A program made the position numbers and the translations under genes. This document shows positions 8,114-61,769 of a DNA stretch of 64,000 bases, in pieces. Below the pieces are notes generated by a model. The model saw only the letters and a program-made list of their open reading frames with translations. It did not search any database and was not told the origin of the DNA. The stretch is taken from the IMG/VR virus record IMGVR_UViG_3300022752_000054, positions 9,431 through 73,430 of that record, one strand, 5' to 3'. Within the stretch, counting starts at the first letter, position 1, and every line of letters starts with the position of its first letter. This DNA is from a virus.

Positions 8114-8812
8114 TCATTTGGCTTTGTCTCTGTCTGTTGCACAACCCTTTACTTCTACGTAGAGTTTTAATGAATCTATGTAGAAGTCAGGAAAATATTT
8201 CCTCTGGCCTTCCCAATCATACTCAAAGTATTCTAGGCATCTTTGTGGGTTCAATCCTTCATTTTTAGCCCAATCATAAAATATTATTTCCCACGTGCTG
8301 TCAAATCTCACGCCATCTATTGTTACTTTTTTAGCACGAAAACGATTTAAGTTTGAATAAGATTCCGGGTGTTCTTCAACTGCTTTCTTCATGTAAGCGC
8401 GTATCTGATCTTTTCTTTCTTGCGAATATTGCCGACCAGACAATTTCTTTCTTAATTTCTCTTTTGTTTCTTCGGTGATTGGATTCCTGATTCTACGCGG
8501 ATTGTCTGGACATTGTGATTCATGACACATGAGACTTAAGAAAGAAGATTTGAACTTCCCAAGATCACAATCTTTTTGGCAGAATTTACATAAGAATTTT
8601 TGAGTCTCTGTGCACTCTTTTCTTCTCTCTTTGACCGCTTTTCTCTTTAAGGTTATCGGGGAAGCTTCTCCACCCACATATTTTCCTTTTCTAGAAGGAA
8701 TTTTCAAGTTCTTGCTTCTGTTAGGATTTGATTCACACCAAGCTTCATGAATCCTCAGCGACATTAGGTTCGGCTTCTTCGATTCTTTCCCGCAATATTG
8801 ACAATGATGCAT
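8114..8812 (-). CDS. free-standing homing endonuclease-like protein (Zn fingers, NUMOD3-like, PD-(D/E)xK)
   Basis: Two CxxC..H..C repeats, EETKEKLR, DSTWE...YFPDFY...YVEVKG. Confidence 0.75.
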   Translation of the reverse strand: MHHCQYCGKESKKPNLMSLRIHEAWCESNPNRSKNLKIPSRKGKYVGGEASPITLKRKAVKERRKECTETQKFLCKFCQKDCDLGKFKSSFLSLMCHESQCPDNPRRIRNPITEETKEKLRKKLSGRQYSQERKDQIRAYMKKAVEEHPESYSNLNRFRAKKVTIDGVRFDSTWEIIFYDWAKNEGLNPQRCLEYFEYDWEGQRKYFPDFYIDSLKLYVEVKGCATDRDKAK

Positions 8813-46828: not shown

Positions 46829-46941
46829 GGTGTCAGGGTATCATGTTCTGACAGGACATTACACTGAGAATTTTAATTTTCTACCCTTCATCCACCCATC
46901 TTCTAGATAGACCTGAGTACAAAAAGTGTTACCGCTCTTCG

Positions 46942-47029
46942 CGGAGAAGGAGAGATTCGAACTCCCGGTGGGCTTTCACCCACGACGGTTTTCTAAACCG
47001 TTGCTTTACAACCACTCAGCCACTTCTCC
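46942..47029 (-). tRNA. tRNA-Ser(AGA)
   Basis: GGAGAAG acceptor, ACGGT-TTAGAAA-ACCGT anticodon arm, long variable arm, G73. Confidence 0.88.
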
Positions 47030-47035
47030 AAATAT

Positions 47036-47644
47036 TTACTCGTACAACTCAATAAAGTTTTGTCCATATTTCATGACAACATAGTCCAATATAGGCCGCA
47101 TGTCATCTTCGTACAAAACTTTAATATCGGGATTTGATTTAATTTTTTCTTCCCATTGAGGAGTCTTATATCCTTTTATCTCGACTAGAGAATCTTCTAC
47201 CAAGAAATCCGGGATATAATTCTTGTCTTTACCTTCCCATGTATATGATCTTTTTTCTAGATTCCTGACAATGCTAATTCCCTTGTCAAGACAATAGATA
47301 ACATAAGCTAATTCCCAGCTGCTGTCACAAAAAAATCCTTTATACCATCCTTTTTTACCTCGACCTGAACCTTTAATGTAACCTCCTAAATTTCTTTTCT
47401 TTGCTAGTTCAGATAATTTTTGTTTGAATTCTTCTGAATGTTTGCAACCCTTTAATCCCTTTAACCCCTTGTTCCAAGATTTAAATCCGGTTTTACCTTT
47501 ATTCCAAGGTACGCTTCCTTTTTGTGCACCAGCTTTTTCAGAATGAATAAATTTTACTTTTTCTGGATTTAATTTGCAACGCATTTGGTGCGCCACAAGA
47601 GAACCTCTATTATTGATTTCTTTGCTGCAGAATTTACAATTCAT
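47036..47644 (-). CDS. homing endonuclease-like protein (Zn finger, NUMOD3, PD-(D/E)xK)
   Basis: PWNKG repeats, HSEEFKQKLS, DSSWE, YIPDF, VEIKGY. Confidence 0.8.
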   Translation of the reverse strand: MNCKFCSKEINNRGSLVAHQMRCKLNPEKVKFIHSEKAGAQKGSVPWNKGKTGFKSWNKGLKGLKGCKHSEEFKQKLSELAKKRNLGGYIKGSGRGKKGWYKGFFCDSSWELAYVIYCLDKGISIVRNLEKRSYTWEGKDKNYIPDFLVEDSLVEIKGYKTPQWEEKIKSNPDIKVLYEDDMRPILDYVVMKYGQNFIELYE

Positions 47645-47702
47645 GCTTTAATTATAAAGCAAAAATTAAGACTGTAACATTAAACCAATTTTCTTTGTGC
47701 GG

Positions 47703-47774
47703 AGCCCCCGACTGGAATCGAACCAGCTTTCTCCTCATTACAAGTGAGGTGCATGACCATTATGCTACAGAGGC
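47703..47774 (-). tRNA. tRNA-Thr(TGT)
   Basis: Cloverleaf, CCTCA-CTTGTAA-TGAGG. Confidence 0.9.
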
Positions 47775-47780
47775 GTATAG

Positions 47781-47855
47781 TGGACCTGGACGGGATCGAA
47801 CCGACGAAACCTCCTGAATGCAAATCAGGCGCTCTCCCAACTGAGCTACAGGCCC
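47781..47855 (-). tRNA. tRNA-Ala(TGC)
   Basis: Cloverleaf, G3:U70, TTTGCAT loop. Confidence 0.9.
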
Positions 47856-47890
47856 AACATGTCATATATATTCTGTTGTCAAGAATTTTG

Positions 47891-47972
47891 TGGGGCATGA
47901 TGGACTCGAACCACCGAAGTCTTTGACAGCTGATTTACAGTCAGCCCCCTTTGCCGCTCGGGACAATACCCC
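47891..47972 (-). tRNA. tRNA-Tyr(GTA)
   Basis: GCTGA-CTGTAAA-TCAGC, long variable arm. Confidence 0.9.
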
Positions 47973-47975
47973 ATG

Positions 47976-48050
47976 TGGAGCGGGGTACCGGTAACGATCC
48001 GGTCTTTCAGGCTTGGAAAGCCCGTGCACATCCACCTATACCAACCCCGC
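47976..48050 (-). tRNA. tRNA-Gly(TCC)
   Basis: GCGGGGT acceptor, TTTCCAA loop, U73, CCA. Confidence 0.88.
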
Positions 48051-48072
48051 ATGATTTTTACTATACTTTGTG

Positions 48073-48636
48073 TTACGTACTTTGTACAGATTTTCTTTGA
48101 AATGTTTTGATTTCTGGAAAGTACTTTTTCATGACTCTTCTTACATGAGTGTGAGAACAATTCATAGAAGAAGATAATTTTGATATCCACCCAAAATGGG
48201 TAAGATCAACTTCTTTGATTGCTTGTTTCCATATAACTAATTGTTTGTCAGACAACGCGTTCCATCCGCCACCAACTTTCCCTGCTTTAGAAGCGATGTT
48301 TGAAAGAATTTCAGATGTTTTCTTTTCTCCATACTTCTTTAGTGTTCTTGAATGAATAGACGTCCATCTTCCAGCATCTTTTGCGTCTTGCCAATTGTCC
48401 TTTGGCGTTCCCCAATAGAGATGAACTGGGTTTGAACAATGTGGATTGTTACACGCGTGGCAAACATAAATGTTTCTATTTCCTATAGTTGTTTTTAGGA
48501 AGTGTGCCAACAATCCTCTGAAAAGCCTAGAGTCTCCTCCTATTTCTATGCATTCTTCATGCAGTTTGAGATGCAATCTTCTCTCTTCACGAGAGAGTTT
48601 CATGTGTTCGTGAATGTCTACAAATTCTTGTTTCAT
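48073..48636 (-). CDS. HNH homing endonuclease
   Basis: VCHACNNPHCSNP.HL.WGT.KDN..D. Confidence 0.85.
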   Translation of the reverse strand: MKQEFVDIHEHMKLSREERRLHLKLHEECIEIGGDSRLFRGLLAHFLKTTIGNRNIYVCHACNNPHCSNPVHLYWGTPKDNWQDAKDAGRWTSIHSRTLKKYGEKKTSEILSNIASKAGKVGGGWNALSDKQLVIWKQAIKEVDLTHFGWISKLSSSMNCSHTHVRRVMKKYFPEIKTFQRKSVQST

Positions 48637-48681
48637 TTGAACCTACAACATATATATATTGCAAGTTCGAATTTGTATCGG

Positions 48682-48756
48682 TGGCTGGGGAACAGGGACT
48701 CGAACCCCAATTCGCGGATTCAAAGTCCGCTGTCCTAACCATTGAACGATTCCCCA
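48682..48756 (-). tRNA. tRNA-Gln(TTG)
   Basis: TGGGGAA acceptor, CTTTGAA loop, CCA. Confidence 0.9.
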
Positions 48757-48761
48757 ATCAG

Positions 48762-48835
48762 CGTCCTTGAGAGGGCTCGAACCTCTGGCCGGGTGCTTAG
48801 AAGGCACCTGCTCTATCCAACTGAGCTACAAGGAC
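48762..48835 (-). tRNA. tRNA-Arg(TCT)
   Basis: GGATA D-loop (A20), CTTCTAA loop. Confidence 0.9.
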
Positions 48836-48840
48836 ATGGG

Positions 48841-48912
48841 CTCCGGGGGTTGGGATCGAACCAACGACCGGGCGGTTAACAGCCGCCAGCTCTGCCACTG
48901 AGCTACCCCGGA
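48841..48912 (-). tRNA. tRNA-Asn(GTT)
   Basis: TCCGGGG acceptor, CTGTTAA loop. Confidence 0.9.
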
Positions 48913-48955
48913 AAAACCTCCACCCCGACCTGCAGGGTGGAGGCAGTCACAGCAA

Positions 48956-49207
48956 TCAGCGACGACGCGTTGGGCGCTCTACTGGTCGAACCTCCGCGAA
49001 GTAGGCTGAGTAACCGTCTGGGCGTCGATAGTTGATGTTTGACGCGCATGACTGCGCCTCCTCGCGGGTGTCGAATGTCGTGGCCTCATCGAACGTACCC
49101 CAGACGCCCTGAACTCGACCACTGTACGTTGGCCGGGTAAGGAAGCGGCGGCTGTTGGCCTCACGAACGACGTATGCTGTGATTGTGTTGTTGCTCTTGT
49201 TTGTCAT
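48956..49207 (-). CDS. hypothetical protein
   Basis: ORF behind a leaderless-type promoter. Confidence 0.6.
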   Translation of the reverse strand: MTNKSNNTITAYVVREANSRRFLTRPTYSGRVQGVWGTFDEATTFDTREEAQSCASNINYRRPDGYSAYFAEVRPVERPTRRR

Positions 49208-49409
49208 GGTCTTTATTCTACTCTTTCTTTTTTTGTTTTACAAGCGTGCCATGCAACTAGTTGCACGACGAAATCTTTTTGGAAGGTGGTTACTACCCCG
49301 ATGTGTGGCCCGGGGATTCACCTGCATATAACATGAGCTTTCCCTGCGACGCCAGGGTCCACAGCTGCAATATATAATCTAAGTCTCCTGGATGCGTCGG
49401 TCTAGGAGA

Positions 49410-49485
49410 TGGTGGGTCCGGTGGGGTACGATCCCACAACTTATCGCTTAAAAGGCGACTACTCTACCAATTGAGTTACGGACCC
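49410..49485 (-). tRNA. tRNA-Lys(TTT)
   Basis: GGGTCCG acceptor, CTTTTAA loop, CCA. Confidence 0.9.
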
Positions 49486-49495
49486 GTAACAGTAA

Positions 49496-49705
49496 TCAAT
49501 CTTCCGACCAAGAGATGACTTCGGTCAGAGAATTGAGAACCTCTTTTTCAATTTCTGATTTGATCGTATCGCTGCTCGGAGATTCAGTATACTTGAACGC
49601 TCGATTCCATCCTCGATGGATTCCATCCTCCACCGCACGAGAGATAACCACGTATGTGTTGATCTTCAGTTCTGCATGCGGTCGAAGTCTTCTTGTGAGC
49701 TTCAT
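49496..49705 (-). CDS. hypothetical protein
   Basis: AVE.G...GW.RA.K motif; start placed downstream of the tRNA. Confidence 0.6.
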   Translation of the reverse strand: MKLTRRLRPHAELKINTYVVISRAVEDGIHRGWNRAFKYTESPSSDTIKSEIEKEVLNSLTEVISWSED

Positions 49706-49712
49706 TGTTGCG

Positions 49713-49788
49713 TGGTGCCTACCGTGGGATTCGAACCCACCCTGTATCGATTTTGAGTCGACTGCCTCTGCCACTGGGCTACGTAGGC
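49713..49788 (-). tRNA. tRNA-Leu(CAA) with a short variable region
   Basis: GTCGA-CTCAAAA-TCGAT, 5-nt variable region, A73, CCA. Confidence 0.82.
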
Positions 49789-56614: not shown

Positions 56615-56830
56615 ATGAAGAACATCATCACGCTCCTCAACGACGGCGAGACCTTCACCTCCGCGGAGGGCACCTCGGTCTGCTTCCTGTCCGACGCCGA
56701 CGTGGATGCCCTGGCCTCGGGCGAGCACACCATCGACGAGCTGGTCGCTGCGGTGGGTCGCCGGCGGTACGACCTGACCAACCCGGCTCACCTCCGGGCC
56801 TTGGCGGACCGGCTCGAAAAGAGCCGGTGA
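56615..56830 (+). CDS. early hypothetical protein
   Basis: LNDGET motif; leaderless start. Confidence 0.7.
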   Translation: MKNIITLLNDGETFTSAEGTSVCFLSDADVDALASGEHTIDELVAAVGRRRYDLTNPAHLRALADRLEKSR

Positions 56831-56868
56831 GCGGTGCAAAGTCGACCTCGAACCCGGTGGGTGGAACC

Positions 56869-57099
56869 ATGAATCTCGAGGAGTTCCTGCGGTTGGCCTT
56901 GGAGCCCTGTGGTCGTAGCCAACGGCCCGGTCAGGCTTTCATGAACTCTGTGTTCTCCTTGAACCAACATCTCTACCGGGACCTCTTGTCCCTTGGGCTA
57001 GATGCCTTCTACGACGATTCCAAGATGTGGGCGGCCGTGGAGTGGATCACGCGGAACGCAGAAAGTTACTTCCCGTTGCAAAGTTCACACCAGAAGTGA
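56869..57099 (+). CDS. early hypothetical protein
   Basis: QR.GQA.MN...D.FYDD. Confidence 0.65.
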   Translation: MNLEEFLRLALEPCGRSQRPGQAFMNSVFSLNQHLYRDLLSLGLDAFYDDSKMWAAVEWITRNAESYFPLQSSHQK

Positions 57100-57111
57100 T
57101 AGGGTAGAACC

Positions 57112-57390
57112 ATGATCAATCTGTTCATCGGGTGGGGCGTTTCGGCCTTGTTGGGTAGCGGAACTCTCTACCTCATCATCATGGTCTTCGCGTTGGCCTT
57201 CCCGCGGCTCTTTCGGGTGGGCTACTGGCTCTTAATGTTGCCCATCATGTCGTTAGGGCCTGCGATCCTTGGTTGGCTCTTCTTCGGTTTCTTCCTCGGT
57301 TGGAACACCGCCACTTTCATGTTAACTCTCGCAGGTGGCACGGCCTTCGGGGTTGCCTTTTGCCTCTGGTCGGATCCGAAACAAGATTGA
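57112..57390 (+). CDS. membrane protein
   Basis: Three hydrophobic segments. Confidence 0.65.
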   Translation: MINLFIGWGVSALLGSGTLYLIIMVFALAFPRLFRVGYWLLMLPIMSLGPAILGWLFFGFFLGWNTATFMLTLAGGTAFGVAFCLWSDPKQD

Positions 57391-57399
57391 GGATAAGCC

Positions 57400-57618
57400 A
57401 TGAACTCTCGACTCAAAGAAGCATTGCTGTTCTACATCAAGGGAACGCTGACAGACCCCGCTGGGGTGGATGAGATGGTGATGTTGGCTTTGTACAAACT
57501 TCGCGGCGAGTCAACTGACATGGGCCTTCGTCAAGACCTCGACGCACTGATCGCTCGAGTCGAGAAGAGAGGCGAAAGGTACCATTTGGCATCTCCCGAA
57601 CGGATGAGCGTGGCTTAA
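57400..57618 (+). CDS. hypothetical protein
   Basis: GAGGA SD. Confidence 0.6.
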   Translation: MNSRLKEALLFYIKGTLTDPAGVDEMVMLALYKLRGESTDMGLRQDLDALIARVEKRGERYHLASPERMSVA

Positions 57619-57752
57619 TGGCTACCTTGGCCTTGAAGCTCATCTGCTGCTTCGTGATGGCTGTGCTCTTCCCCTTGGGTGTTGTAGCCACCCTGGACAA
57701 CAAATAGTTCGTGGCAGTGCAAAGTTCCAGCTTGACGTGATAGGATCTAATC

Positions 57753-58364
57753 ATGAACGACGACACCATCCTGCCGCCCCCGTTCGAGGAACCCGAGTTC
57801 GAGTCGATCTCCTCGATCCTTGCGAACGAGGCGAAAGAGAAGGCCCGCCTCGCGCAGAAGCCCATCATTGACCTCCTTGAGGATGCCATCGAGATGGACG
57901 AGGACGGCGTGCCCGTGTTCACGATCCCTCCAGGCGAGCGAGTCATCATCGAGCGCGTGGCCTCTGTTCTTCCTGGGAAGCAGTGGCTCGACACGAAGGT
58001 GTACACAGTGGAGACCATCGACGGAGTCACCGGTAACTTGATGCTCTGGGACGACGCCGGCAAGTGCCATGCCATGTCGAACTACCTCACCGCGCCCAAG
58101 GTTGGCTACCGGTTCAAGGTCCCGCCGGCCAAGGGTGGTTTGCAGATTCAGGGTCGTAAGCGTGGTCGGCCCCGTAAGGTGGTGCCCCTTGGCCAGGAGA
58201 AGCCGGTGGAACCTGTCCAACTGGATGAAAATGGTCAACCGATTAAGAAGAAGCGTGGTCGCCCGCCGGGGACCAAGAACCGACCGAAGGAGGTCGTGGT
58301 TGCGGAACGTAAGGCCACGGCAGAGATGAAGGCCAAGAAGAAAGCAAAACGTAAGAAGGCCTGA
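57753..58364 (+). CDS. AT-hook-containing putative DNA-binding protein
   Basis: Acidic N-terminus; RKRGRPRK and KKRGRPPG hooks; basic tail. Confidence 0.7.
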   Translation: MNDDTILPPPFEEPEFESISSILANEAKEKARLAQKPIIDLLEDAIEMDEDGVPVFTIPPGERVIIERVASVLPGKQWLDTKVYTVETIDGVTGNLMLWDDAGKCHAMSNYLTAPKVGYRFKVPPAKGGLQIQGRKRGRPRKVVPLGQEKPVEPVQLDENGQPIKKKRGRPPGTKNRPKEVVVAERKATAEMKAKKKAKRKKA

Positions 58365-58371
58365 TGGCCAT

Positions 58372-58448
58372 GCCGCCGTATCCCCTCGGTTTCCTAAACC
58401 GTTGAAAGGGTAGCCGGATGCACGTGGGTTCGAATCCCTCCGGCGGTG
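58372..58448 (+). tRNA. non-canonical tRNA-Arg(CCT)-like gene lacking a normal D-arm
   Basis: GCCGCCG/CGGCGGT acceptor, GTGGG-TTCGAAT-CCCTC T-arm, CGGT-TTCCTAA-ACCG anticodon arm only 8 nt after the acceptor strand. Confidence 0.7.
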
Positions 58449-58481
58449 CAAAGTTAACCTCAAACAAGGTAAGGTAGAACC

Positions 58482-59324
58482 ATGGACACGCAAGAGACGC
58501 TTCAACGGGCAGCCCAGCTATTGCGAGTAGCTGACGCACTCATCATCACGGCTGGAGCAGGAATGGGGGTGGATAGCGGTCTGCCCGATTTCCGAGGAGA
58601 TGAAGGTTTCTGGAATGCTTATCCGGCGTACAAGCATCTTGGTCTCACCTTCTCCGACATGGCCAACCCGAGGTGGTTTGAGGAGAATCCGGCGTTGGCA
58701 TGGGGATTCTACGGACACCGGCTCAATCTGTACCGCGCTACACAACCTCATGCAGGATTCGATGTCCTGAAGCGTCTTGCTCGAGGCATGAAGTATGGTG
58801 CCTTCGTCTTCACGTCTAACGTGGATGGTGCCTTCCAGAAGGCTGGTTTCGACCCCGATCGTATCGTGGAATGCCATGGATCCATCCATCACGTCCAGTG
58901 TACAAAGGGATGTGGCATCGGCATTCTGCCTGCAGAACGTGTTAAGATCGATGTGGATTCCAAGACGTTTGAGGCCCAGAGTCCGCTACCCGTCTGCCCG
59001 CGCTGCGGAGAGCTCTTGAGGCCAAACATCCTGATGTTTGGCGATCCGGGATGGAATTTCTCTCGTGCCGATGAGCAAGACGAGAGGATGACGGAGTGGG
59101 TCCGGACCTTAGCAGATCGTCATGTCGCAACCGTTGTCATCGAGTTGGGCGCAGGCAAACATATCCCCAGCGTGCGGGCGAAGAGTTCTTTGTTGTCAAA
59201 CAAACTCAATGCTCCACTCATTCGCATCAATACTCGAGATTCCGATGGTTTCCCCAATACGTTGTCGTTGCCGATGAAGGCAAAAGAGGCTCTCATCGAA
59301 CTGGAAATCTTGTCAAAATCTTAA
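58482..59324 (+). CDS. Sir2/CobB-family NAD-dependent deacylase
   Basis: GAGMGVDSGLPDFRG, TSNVDG, ECHGS, CxxC..CPRC, RPNILMF, GAG..IP.VR. Confidence 0.9.
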   Translation: MDTQETLQRAAQLLRVADALIITAGAGMGVDSGLPDFRGDEGFWNAYPAYKHLGLTFSDMANPRWFEENPALAWGFYGHRLNLYRATQPHAGFDVLKRLARGMKYGAFVFTSNVDGAFQKAGFDPDRIVECHGSIHHVQCTKGCGIGILPAERVKIDVDSKTFEAQSPLPVCPRCGELLRPNILMFGDPGWNFSRADEQDERMTEWVRTLADRHVATVVIELGAGKHIPSVRAKSSLLSNKLNAPLIRINTRDSDGFPNTLSLPMKAKEALIELEILSKS

Positions 59325-59415
59325 CACCACGCTGTGCAAACCTTAGACCCATCGTGATATACTGATTTCAACGCTGGCCGCTAACCACAACCTCTTGACC
59401 TTGAAAGAAAAAGAA

Positions 59416-59607
59416 ATGAGCAACGAGAACAGCAACATCAGCACGGACACCTGCGACGACTGCGGACGACATGGCCCCGGGACACGTTACGTGCAGGACG
59501 ACTCGACGACATACTTCATCTGCATGTCGTGTGGGCCAAAGCAATTCGAAAAGACCGCACGTCGGGACATCGACTCATGGCTGGCAGGAGGTGACTTCGG
59601 GGGATGA
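59416..59607 (+). CDS. small Zn-finger protein
   Basis: CDDC...CMSC. Confidence 0.55.
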   Translation: MSNENSNISTDTCDDCGRHGPGTRYVQDDSTTYFICMSCGPKQFEKTARRDIDSWLAGGDFGG

Positions 59608-59858
59608 GCTGGAATTACCGAGTTGTCCGCAAGATCCTTTCGGGCGAAGGATATTCCACGACTCAGTACGGGATCCATGAGGTCTACTACGATGACGATC
59701 ACGTACCGACTTCGTGTACCGTCAACCCTGTCACCCCTTATGGCGAGTCCGAGGAGGAGTTGGCCCAAGACGTGCGGCATTACGCCTCGGCCTTGGAGAA
59801 GCCGGTTCTCGATTACGATTCGATCGGTGCAAAGCCGAATTCGAACGTGATAGAGTAG
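59604..59858 (+). CDS. hypothetical protein (WNYRV..IHEVYY family)
   Basis: Motif shared with 60811..61071. Confidence 0.7.
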   Translation: MSWNYRVVRKILSGEGYSTTQYGIHEVYYDDDHVPTSCTVNPVTPYGESEEELAQDVRHYASALEKPVLDYDSIGAKPNSNVIE

Positions 59859-59862
59859 AACT

Positions 59863-59997
59863 ATGAAGAACAAGAGGAAGCAAAACCCGATCGTCGTGGC
59901 CATGACCCTTCGTCACGCCACGACGACAACCCGTATGAAGGACCGTCGCCAACGCCGTCCGAAGGACGCCCGCCACAAGGAGGACTGGTACAAGTAG
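59863..59997 (+). CDS. 44-aa basic protein (not in the ORF track)
   Basis: MKNKRKQNPIVVAMTLRH...KDRRQRRPK; leaderless-type promoter directly upstream. Confidence 0.6.
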   Translation: MKNKRKQNPIVVAMTLRHATTTTRMKDRRQRRPKDARHKEDWYK

Positions 59998-60041
59998 ACC
60001 CAACGGGTTTACCATTGTGGTAGTGGGGGTACATTACCGCA

Positions 60042-61516: not shown

Positions 61517-61556
61517 GGTGGTGCAAAGTCACCATCTTAAATGGTAGAGTAGAACC

Positions 61557-61769
61557 ATGATGATCTTACCTGTCGATCATGTCGATCTAACATACTACTC
61601 ACCTTCTCATTTGAGATCAATCGGCGAGGCCTTGGTCGACCGATTGAAGAAAGGGAAGGTTGAGCTTGCAGGTCTTGATCAAGCAGCGTTGACAGCTGCT
61701 CGAGCGGGAATTCCTACGTCTCGTGACATCATTCGTCTGAAGGAAGCCTGCAGACTCGCGGGTGTGTAG
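61557..61769 (+). CDS. hypothetical protein
   Basis: Leaderless-type promoter. Confidence 0.55.
   Translation: MMILPVDHVDLTYYSPSHLRSIGEALVDRLKKGKVELAGLDQAALTAARAGIPTSRDIIRLKEACRLAGV

Follow-up and report, generated by a model that had tools for sequence, protein, structure and literature searches.

To our knowledge, the connectivity of the cytoplasmic-type tRNA cloverleaf is regarded as near-universal, and the exceptions either lack whole arms, as in mitochondria, or have stems of altered length, as in tRNA-Sec and allo-tRNAs. In the red alga Cyanidioschyzon merolae, tRNA genes are circularly permuted and the normal tRNA is restored by processing. Y RNAs are longer and have a Ro-binding helix where the anticodon arm would be. 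D-armless mitochondrial tRNAs, such as mammalian tRNA-Ser(AGY) and the minimal tRNAs of nematodes and mites, are described as functional in the relevant sections of PMC7609411 and PMC4013460. Here we report on a rearranged tRNA-Arg(CCU) gene of 77 nt from a giant phage, recognized by sequence inspection at positions 58372–58448 (+ strand) of a 64,000-nt stretch of IMG/VR record IMGVR_UViG_3300022752_000054 (hereafter, the window), and on phage genes with the same architecture.

Compared with canonical tRNA-Arg (RF00005), the gene has the same 7-bp acceptor stem, a 5-bp T stem with a TTCGANT loop, a 7-nt anticodon loop, an Arg anticodon, G73 and a GG-A motif resembling G18-G19-A20; its anticodon arm has U33 and a purine at 37, with U-U as the first stem pair. 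Unlike the canonical molecule, it has no 5′ D hairpin: a D-stem-like helix (S1) spans the anticodon arm and a D-loop-like motif lies 3′ of it. The absence of a D hairpin 5′ of the anticodon arm is shared with the D-armless mitochondrial tRNAs, but these have lost their D-arm elements, whereas the phage family keeps S1, the GG motif and the identity nucleotide in displaced positions, shows no reduction of the acceptor and T arms, and comes from bacteriophages. The allo-tRNAs and tRNA-Sec-like 8/4 and 9/3 tRNAs are likewise unusual in shape, come from metagenomes and phage tRNA clusters, and escape standard tools, as described in parts of PMC5389517; they have an altered acceptor/T split with the D arm in place, whereas the phage family is 7/5 with the D arm rewired. 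The order of segments departs from the textbook in both the C. merolae genes and the phage gene, but the latter starts with the 5′ strand of the acceptor and ends with its 3′ strand, and the encoded RNA appears to have its final topology. The YrlA module of bacterial Y RNA also has counterparts of the tRNA acceptor, T and D parts without forming a normal cloverleaf (sections of PMC4201824 and bioRxiv 10.1101/312249); unlike it, the phage family has a 7-nt anticodon loop and a triplet that tracks identity nucleotides. Finally, phage tRNAs whose altered anticodon loops let them evade anticodon nucleases are variants departing from host tRNAs and point to a possible selective reason, but the changes described in the sections available of PMC10264068, PMC11464382 and PMC11555353 are point changes in a normal cloverleaf.

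A first-pass annotation of the window had reported a 7-bp acceptor stem, a TTCGAAT T loop, a TT-CCT-AA anticodon loop, a short spacer and a long 3′ segment, and each of these is present where it had been placed. All parts lie on the + strand. The 5′ strand of the acceptor stem, GCCGCCG (58372–58378), pairs with CGGCGGT (58441–58447) over 7 bp including G1-U72, and is followed by the connector TAT (58379–58381), equivalent to U8-A9-U10. In the family the TA of this connector is invariant and T10 occurs in 99 of 100 unique sequences; positions 8–10 were free in the search pattern, so this conservation is unforced. Next come the S1 5′ strand CCC (58382–58384), whose partner is GGG (58408–58410), and a lone C (58385; family column C 76, G 23 of 100) that joins S1 to the anticodon stem and would correspond to position 26; the whole spacer between acceptor stem and anticodon stem is TATCCCCT. 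The anticodon arm (58386–58402), delimited by Rfam alignment and family covariation, has the stem TCGGT/ACCGT with a first U-U pair and the loop TTCCTAA (58391–58397), with the anticodon CCT at 58393–58395. The 22-nt stretch downstream of the anticodon stem (58402–58423) includes the TGAAA bulge (58403–58407) on the 3′ side between anticodon stem and S1, the S1 3′ strand and a 13-nt single-stranded linker, TAGCCGGATGCAC (58411–58423), which holds a D-loop-like A-R-Y-Y-G-G-A motif and runs directly into the T stem. In the window, A after the GG of this motif occurs together with the CCT anticodon and G73. A conserved hairpin within the linker (GC...GC in the window) was considered and rejected, as it cannot be formed in the third gene of contig L052 or in most members. 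The T arm (58424–58440; Rfam alignment, family pairing 98.8%) consists of the stem GTGGG/CCCTC with one U-U and the loop TTCGAAT; the U-U, at 54:68, is common to the near relatives L052 no. 1, L092 and L194. The acceptor 3′ strand is followed by the discriminator G (58448) and then by CAA, so that CCA is not encoded. The codon AGG makes up 17.2% of the Arg codons in 58 crude open reading frames of the window.

Genes with this architecture were collected by two pattern scans of IMG/VR, which combined gave at least 192 distinct sequences in at least 224 loci. The first scan yielded at least 120 loci; 116 of its 124 matches passed a filter for acceptor-stem and T-stem pairing (S1 and the anticodon stem were not part of the filter) and represent 100 unique sequences, with the anticodons TCT (39), ACG (30), TCG (17), CCT (11), CCG (1), GCG (1) and GAT (1) among the matches listed. 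The 8 matches that failed comprise four that are seemingly unrelated (L054, L066, L101 and L129) and four with the architecture, three having fewer than 6 acceptor pairs (L075, L079 and L155) and one having 3 T-stem pairs (L086). The second scan, in which a nucleotide other than A was required after GG, yielded at least 119 loci; 112 of 118 matches passed, giving 92 unique sequences with the anticodons TAT (70), GAT (13), CAT (8) and TAC (1) among the matches listed, and the 6 that failed were left out of the counts. GAAA, TA, the GG motif and TTCGA were fixed by the scan patterns, and pairing of the acceptor and T stems by the script; none of these features can be counted as conserved. For the same reason the invariance of GAAA in the scan is uninformative, and members found by a model without the pattern vary at the bulge, which reads GGAA or AGTA or is absent.

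A covariance model of the family (R1) scored the window copy at 80.8 bits, a match that is partly by construction since this copy is in the seed alignment, and canonical tRNAs at no more than 27 bits. Ten other members reached 54–91 bits (three from L052, four from Streptomyces phage Mildred21 and one each from EGole, L097 and L121), and 100 further matches 78–96 bits. Members outside the seed scored 80.4, 88.5 and 78.6 (Mildred21) and 75.1 (EGole), and the filter-failed L075, L079 and L086 reached 80–87 bits. A gene on the 309-kb phage contig L052 differs from the window gene at 3 positions and is followed by two further genes of the same architecture with the anticodons TCG and TCT; CCA follows each of the genes, which are set in a cluster of 20 tRNAs called by ARAGORN. 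Other tRNAs are present in 96 of 113 family loci, and 10 or more in 45 of 113. Cultured carriers include Streptomyces, Microbacterium and crAss-like phages, in which the genes are almost always unannotated. Homologs of the same architecture, whose absence had been named in the first-pass annotation as a sign of a decayed pseudogene, are thus abundant. In the open-access literature, no description of this architecture was found, and none is given in the sections available of PMC7609411, PMC5389517, PMC10732093 and PMC10690425. As far as its available text goes, PMC10690425 lists candidate RNAs from IMG/VR that overlap ARAGORN calls, one of them a tRNA-Arg, under the term 'tRNA or tRNA-like'; the candidate overlapping tRNA-Arg may belong to the present family.

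Helix S1 (columns 11–13/37–39), which closes around the anticodon arm, shows full complementarity in 160 of 161 three-bp cases, in 19 sequence types. Shuffles gave 47.6 such cases on average and never more than 62; over all paired cells, 96.7% are paired versus 65.1% in shuffles, with 0 of 500 shuffles as high, although the family sequences are related and these figures overstate independence. Sliding of the partners lowers pairing to 33–44%. The search for compensatory changes, proposed with the first-pass annotation, revealed changes on both sides in 21 of 21 pairs. The S1 cells are 100% paired; the acceptor columns 1–7/70–76 are 99.2% paired with compensatory changes in 7 of 7 pairs, and the anticodon-stem columns 16–19/27–30 covary. 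Pair 15:31 is non-standard in 55 of 101 sequences, which makes the U-U of the window at this place a family trait. The anticodon loop has an invariant U33-like T and A37-like A. After S1 the family layout is U-A, R-N-N-G-G-N ... Y, with the T stem immediately next; the R (58413) and Y (58423) covary in the manner of a 15:48 pair (A:U 166, G:C 20, G:U 3, A:C 3) and are G and C in the window.

That the 3′ segment pairs back had been suggested for CCCT/AGGG and for TATCC/GGATG. The CCC/GGG part holds and covaries in the family; the TATCC/GGATG pairing, although possible in the window sequence, was rejected for lack of covariation, as it is paired in 76.2% of cells, equal to shuffles, with 0 compensatory pairs. 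Folding of the 101-sequence alignment by RNAalifold recovered the acceptor stem, the T arm and an anticodon stem of 4 bp, and S1 was missing from the prediction; support for S1 comes from pair counts and not from energy. The single-sequence fold of the 77-nt RNA was no stabler than shuffles (z of −1.19) and its minimum free energy structure differs from the proposed one, a result that is uninformative for this RNA.

The nucleotide after GG is coupled to the anticodon. Among the matches listed, it is A in 99 of 100 sequences with Arg anticodons, and U together with an Ile-type anticodon and discriminator A in 91 of 92; within the second scan, U after GG and discriminator A are each found in 92 of the 92 sequences listed. 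The bacterial identity sets, as given in Table 1 and the section on arginine identity of PMC9976931, are A/G73, A20, C35 and U/G36 for Arg, and A73, U20 and others for Ile. The split into A with Arg and U with Ile is what the bacterial ArgRS and IleRS identity rules predict. The anticodons of rearranged and canonical Arg tRNAs were also compared within loci. In only 2 of 47 loci holding both types is an anticodon common to the two; shuffling predicts 14.1 (sd 2.9), and none of 2000 shuffles gave so small a number. In Mildred21, for example, the annotated canonical Arg tRNA is for cct only, and the rearranged members have TCT, TCG and ACG. The two types of Arg tRNA carry complementary anticodons.

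The expectation that standard scanners would miss or misclassify such a gene was borne out. ARAGORN called 2 of 116 family matches and did not call the window gene, which is also not listed by Rfam at the gathering threshold. In a local Rfam search it matched RF00005 at 27.1 bits (E of 7e-4; cut-off 29), and in the alignment it has 4 nt in place of 15 D-arm model positions and an 18-nt insertion in the variable region. Seven other members scored 25.2–36.5 bits against RF00005, 5 of them above 29. GenBank labels members as tRNA-Phe(gaa), tRNA-Leu(UUA) or tRNA-OTHER, or leaves them without a label. With the genes absent or mislabelled in the cultured-phage records examined, analyses of phage tRNA repertoires and codon usage undercount decoders of Arg and Ile.

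The allele and its flanks are present in contigs from runs of three studies. Runs X1 and X2 gave contigs across 58250–58600 with 0 differences each (one of them possibly the source sample), and in run X4 two overlapping contigs cover the allele. In an RNA library (run X16), a single contig of 151 nt, at depth 2, spans 58356–58506; it may come from carried-over DNA and is too weak for a claim of transcription. In 11 of 11 syntenic loci (L002–L005 from IMG/VR, and L010–L014, L025 and L032 from metagenomes), the same pair of genes flanks a canonical tRNA-Arg(cct) of 74 nt; at least two of these loci probably stem from a single contig. Compared with L004, the window has 18 differences in the bin that begins at 58300 and 31 in the one that begins at 58400, versus 0–12 in those starting at 57400–58200 and 58500–59700. 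The flanks are identical right to the gene ends; the window and its syntenic relatives differ inside the gene body only, with the exchanged part at 58377–58443 (+ strand), and the canonical gene of the relatives has the same 3′ flank, likewise without CCA. In the window, a canonical tRNA-Arg(CCU) has therefore been swapped for a rearranged gene at the same position and with the same anticodon. The ends of the acceptor stem, common to both tRNA types, may be the borders of the exchange. The rearranged copy is present in 1 of 12 syntenic loci, the window itself, which makes it a recent arrival with an unproven benefit at this locus. Megablast of 57000–60000 against cultured phages gave no match; an exact scan of IMG/VR with the 26-nt stretch from anticodon to linker gave 0 matches; the relatives differ there by at least one base.

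Taken together, we consider it likely that the window element is a real tRNA-Arg gene with the anticodon CCU, for codon AGG, in a widespread phage family with a rewired core. Its acceptor, T and anticodon arms are ordinary, and the D hairpin is absent between position 9 and the anticodon arm. The three nucleotides after U8-A9-U10 pair with three nucleotides 3′ of the anticodon arm to form S1, which would stack on the anticodon arm in the manner of a canonical D stem. Its 5′ strand CCC would take the role of the 3′ strand of the canonical D stem (positions 23–25), and its 3′ strand GGG that of the 5′ strand. As S1 is followed by A-R-Y-Y-G-G-A and then by the T stem, the D-stem 5′ strand and the D loop would both lie 3′ of the anticodon arm. 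An alternative wiring of this kind, with the D loop supplied from the variable position, had been put forward from the window alone, and it is supported by the number of sequences with the same architecture, the pairing of S1, the 15:48-like covariation and the identity coupling. The canonical tertiary contacts (U8 with the A14-like base, the R15:Y48-like pair, and G18/G19 with the T loop) would then form and allow the L shape, charging by ArgRS and reading of AGG. The host ArgRS would charge the tRNA via the A20-like base, C35, U36 and G73, after which AGG would be decoded. The U-U pairs in the anticodon and T stems, the absence of CCA and the sub-threshold Rfam score of the window copy are points against this reading, as are its isolated occurrence among the syntenic loci, the single-sequence fold and the RNAalifold prediction that lacks S1.

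Alternatively, the RNA could be a tRNA mimic acting outside translation, either as a decoy that draws off a host anticodon nuclease or some other defence factor or enzyme that binds tRNA, or as a regulator. The action of phage tRNAs against tRNA-targeting defences is an established theme, according to the sections available of PMC10264068, PMC11555353 and PMC11464382; the odd core might block use by the ribosome or EF-Tu while the anticodon arm stays as bait, and the carrier Mildred21 has genes for an RNA ligase, a polynucleotide kinase and a Ro-like protein as well. We nevertheless find a mimic unlikely. A decoy would be expected beside the working tRNA that it protects, yet anticodons are rarely common to the two types at a locus, and in the window the rearranged gene took the place of the canonical one. 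Moreover, the synthetase identity positions (the 20-like base and 73) track the anticodon, which points to charging, and 65 of the 100 Arg-type genes include the CCA end.

Some carriers encode the RNA ligase, polynucleotide kinase and Ro-like protein with which a precursor might be cut and rejoined into a normal cloverleaf, as for permuted or split tRNA genes, or with which the RNA might act as a Y-RNA-like partner of Ro60; bacterial Y RNAs do mimic tRNAs (sections of PMC4201824). Both variants are very improbable. The acceptor strands are in normal order, so that restoring a cloverleaf would take a transposition, with cutting and ligation at two sites each, and the encoded fold already satisfies every covarying pair. 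As to a Ro partner, the local Rfam search with E up to 10 gave no match to a Y-RNA family, and the 7-nt anticodon loop keeps its U33-like T and A37-like A throughout the family. An origin of the gene by decay or scrambling of the ancestral tRNA-Arg(CCU), leaving a pseudogene or a recombination scar, is scarcely credible: it would account for the sub-threshold Rfam score, the two U-U mismatches, the missing CCA and the single occurrence among 12 syntenic loci, but the interior is a near copy of the gene in the unrelated L052 contig and not a degraded canonical gene, the family model scores it highly with all helices covarying, and both U-U pairs are traits of the family or subfamily. An assembly chimera, conceivable for a window from a metagenome-derived virus record, has a negligible chance, as the same junctions occur in contigs of runs from three studies, which refutes it unless all share one source.

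Returning to the reading of the family as working tRNAs, a bolder extension, which we consider rather unlikely, is that phages developed and spread a second tRNA topology for Arg and Ile, which would be charged by the host ArgRS and IleRS and used on ribosomes, and whose altered core would be a poor substrate for host tRNA-cleaving defences or for tRNA-destroying enzymes of phages; a core of this kind would explain the swap of the canonical tRNA-Arg(CCU) in the window. If the rewired fold is correct, more than one chain topology can lead to the L shape, and the family would reveal, as an experiment made by nature, which tRNA features are truly required by ArgRS, IleRS, RNase P, the CCA-adding enzyme, EF-Tu, modification enzymes and the ribosome; it would also be a source of new scaffolds for orthogonal tRNAs. 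The cultured carriers among phages of laboratory Streptomyces and Microbacterium strains open the family to direct experiment.

The sequence at 58372-58448 (+) was found as the first-pass annotation had read it, a 77-nt gene for a tRNA-Arg(CCU) with the D-arm pieces 3' of the anticodon arm. The gene and the stop codon of the preceding ORF (57753-58364) are 7 nt apart; no Pfam family was found for the encoded protein, whose tail is basic and AT-hook-like. Downstream, the gene ends 33 nt before the ATG of a Sir2-family ORF at 58482-59324 (+) (Pfam PF02146, SIR2, E 9.5e-23). The IMG/VR record behind the window has 73,430 bases and is 23% complete (CheckV), and the window therefore originates from a jumbo phage. 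Ten canonical tRNAs (Ser, Thr, Ala, Tyr, Gly, Gln, Arg(tct), Asn, Lys and Leu; ARAGORN) are present at 46941-49788 on the minus strand, some spaced by gaps of 500-670 nt; no rearranged member was detected in this cluster with R1, a covariance model of the rearranged family built here. The element itself was not called by ARAGORN and was absent from the Rfam matches at gathering threshold. In a local search it aligned end to end with the Rfam tRNA model (27.1 bits versus a cut-off of 29), with the D arm deleted and 18 nt inserted in the variable region. Directly after the gene, a ~40-nt intergenic leader (58444-58484) terminates with the following gene's ATG; similar stretches, which appeared as short matches when the window was compared with its relatives by blastn, lie near 56824-56871, 57074-57114 and 61520-61563. 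This repeated leader stands upstream of several other plus-strand genes in the window, for which it probably acts as a common promoter or ribosome-binding leader.

In the 77-nt numbering (window coordinate = 58371 + n), the acceptor stem (1-7 with 70-76) is followed by U A U (8-10), a 3-bp helix termed S1 (11-13 with 37-39), one nucleotide (14), the anticodon stem (15-19 with 27-31) and loop (20-26), N-G-A-A-A (32-36), a single-stranded linker starting U-A-R-Y-Y-G-G-N (40-52), the T stem (53-57 with 65-69) and the discriminator (77). In an alignment of 101 sequences, standard pairs occupied 96.7% of the cells versus 65.1% in shuffles (0 of 500 as high) and 33-44% in a partner-sliding control; all 21 pairs had changes on both sides, and S1 was 100% paired. 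S1 and the anticodon stem were outside every filter, and among the matches listed from both pattern scans (see below) a three-bp S1 was fully complementary in 160 of 161 cases, with 19 sequence types (shuffle control: mean 47.6, maximum 62). It was not predicted by RNAalifold. GAAA, TA, the GG motif and TTCGA were forced by the scan patterns, and the acceptor and T stems by the filter script, and their constancy is not evidence of conservation. In members found by the covariance model without a pattern, GAAA was variable or absent and the topology unchanged. A second sub-type lacks the GAAA bulge (Streptomyces phage Mildred21, 86379-86453; L121:785-860; L097:14212-14288); all three have the anticodon TCT and score 54-58 bits with R1, and in the first two the enclosing helix is seemingly 4 bp with a bulged G.

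We infer a fold in which two D-arm elements, the 5' strand of the stem and the loop, have been shifted to the 3' side of the anticodon arm. The 5' strand of S1 continues into that of the anticodon stem and would therefore stand in for the D-stem 3' strand (23-25, U10 corresponding to 22). The S1 3' strand is followed by A-R-Y-Y-G-G-N, the same order as that after the D-stem 5' strand in canonical tRNA (A14, R15, Y16, Y17, G18, G19, N20). At the end of the linker, adjoining the T stem, stands a pyrimidine that shows covariation with the R15-like base (A:U 166, G:C 20, G:U 3 and A:C 3 among the matches listed; Fisher 4e-21, a figure that ignores the kinship of the sequences), as expected of the canonical 15:48 Levitt pair. 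Counting S1 with its U-U cap, the anticodon stem and one or two layers between them, the stack would have about ten layers, matching the canonical D stem, 26 and anticodon stem. Speculatively, the order could have arisen if part of the gene was duplicated in tandem and two deletions followed.

When IMG/VR was scanned with a 26-nt stretch, a copy with 3 differences turned up in an unrelated phage contig of 309 kb (L052). It heads a tandem of three genes with the same layout, all missed by ARAGORN. Their anticodons are CCT, TCG and TCT, each gene is followed by CCA, and the three lie at one margin of a cluster of 20 tRNAs; at 8156-8251 (-) in the tRNA cluster of this contig, ARAGORN reported a 96-nt 'tRNA-???' with the four-base anticodon gttc. 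A degenerate pattern from these three genes matched at least 120 IMG/VR loci, and contigs >100 kb accounted for 26 of 80 among the matches listed. Of the 124 matches listed, 116 had both a T stem and, at a distance of exactly 32 nt upstream, a 7-bp acceptor stem; 2 of these 116 overlapped an ARAGORN call. The Rfam tRNA model gave 25.2-36.5 bits for eight members (three under 29), and R1 54-96 bits for members and 27 or less for canonical tRNAs. No description of a rearranged-core tRNA family was found in the literature searched; a survey of structured RNAs in IMG/VR from 2023 (PMC10690425) mentions one candidate overlapping tRNA-Arg, which may belong to this family.

If the base after GG corresponds to position 20, it should obey synthetase identity rules, which in bacteria are, for Arg, A20, C35, U/G36 and A/G73 and, for Ile, U20 and A73 (PMC9976931). 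In the first scan, with A fixed after GG and the anticodon free, the 116 passing matches listed comprised 100 distinct sequences, 99 with Arg anticodons (discriminators: G 50, A 38, U 11). With any base but A allowed after GG, a second scan yielded at least 119 loci; 112 of the 118 matches listed passed, and all 92 distinct sequences among them had U after GG and discriminator A, with anticodons TAT (70), GAT (13), CAT (8) and TAC (1). GGA was kept in 8/8 Arg members found without a pattern, and both cultured-phage Ile(GAT) members had GGU. The rearranged RNAs are thus predicted to be read by ArgRS and IleRS, since the coupling of this base with the anticodon would otherwise be hard to explain. 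One 151-nt contig from an RNA library covered the window's gene, weakly (depth 2).

A search with both flanking proteins gave four IMG/VR contigs, and a Sir2 alignment search 42 metagenome loci, of which 7 were syntenic. At exactly the element's place, 11/11 syntenic loci (some probably one contig present in two collections) carried a canonical 74-nt tRNA-Arg(cct) (ARAGORN), even where the Sir2 protein was only 79% identical, and the pairing of tRNA slot and downstream Sir2-family gene was kept in all syntenic relatives. The window and its closest relative have 0-12 differences per 100 nt around the tRNA gene versus 18 and 31 in the two bins holding it; the acceptor pair 6:67 is C-G in the window and U-A in the relatives. 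A chimeric origin of the window allele was rejected, because contigs of runs from three studies (one run may be the source sample) carry it with its flanks. As the flanks are identical to those of the relatives up to the tRNA's first and last bases and the differences are concentrated in the gene, the comparison indicates a recent replacement confined to the gene body, by a foreign one of the same anticodon. In one lake run with the window allele, two further contigs contained copies in other contexts, which differed from it by 7 and 10 bases.

Among cultured phages, the Arg type occurs in 47 records, 44 of Streptomyces phages (both examined were Samistivirus) and 3 of Microbacterium phages, A3Wally included, and the Ile type in 77 Streptomyces phage records and one crAss-like Kehishuvirus. 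Nearly all listed matches have no annotation; the four members in Mildred21 are unannotated (two), tRNA-OTHER or tRNA-Phe(gaa), and the GAT member of phage EGole is labelled tRNA-Leu(UUA). Rearranged genes with notable neighbours lie at 73703-79 and 91367-442 in Mildred21 and 75265-341 in EGole: in both phages a tRNA nucleotidyltransferase gene precedes the start of Ile(GAT) by ~15 nt, and in Mildred21 the end of an HNH endonuclease gene is separated by 2 nt from Arg(TCG), which follows it. Mildred21 further has genes for a Ro-like protein, an RNA ligase and a polynucleotide kinase. Among 185,579 species genomes, a stricter pattern matched only 10 loci, nine on MAG contigs and one in an isolate of Achromobacter; 5 of them lie within dense arrays of 13-19 ARAGORN tRNAs. 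In arrays also holding rearranged Arg tRNAs, ARAGORN called a 'tRNA-Stop(tta)' (MAG contig L193) and two-base-anticodon oddities (L189 and MAG contig L192).

Rearranged and canonical tRNA-Arg occurred together in 47 loci among the matches listed and shared an anticodon in only 2, versus 14.1 (sd 2.9) in shuffles, 0 of 2000 being as low, a comparison in which the relatedness of the loci overstates independence. In the 34-kb tRNA region examined of Mildred21, cct is the only annotated canonical Arg tRNA, and the rearranged Arg members have TCT, TCG and ACG. Besides the rearranged Arg(CCT), the window phage carries a canonical Arg(tct) at 48761-48835; of the Arg codons in 58 crude ORFs of the window, 17.2% are AGG and 23.7% AGA. 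Escape from tRNA-targeting defences is an attractive candidate reason why phages may keep the rearranged form.
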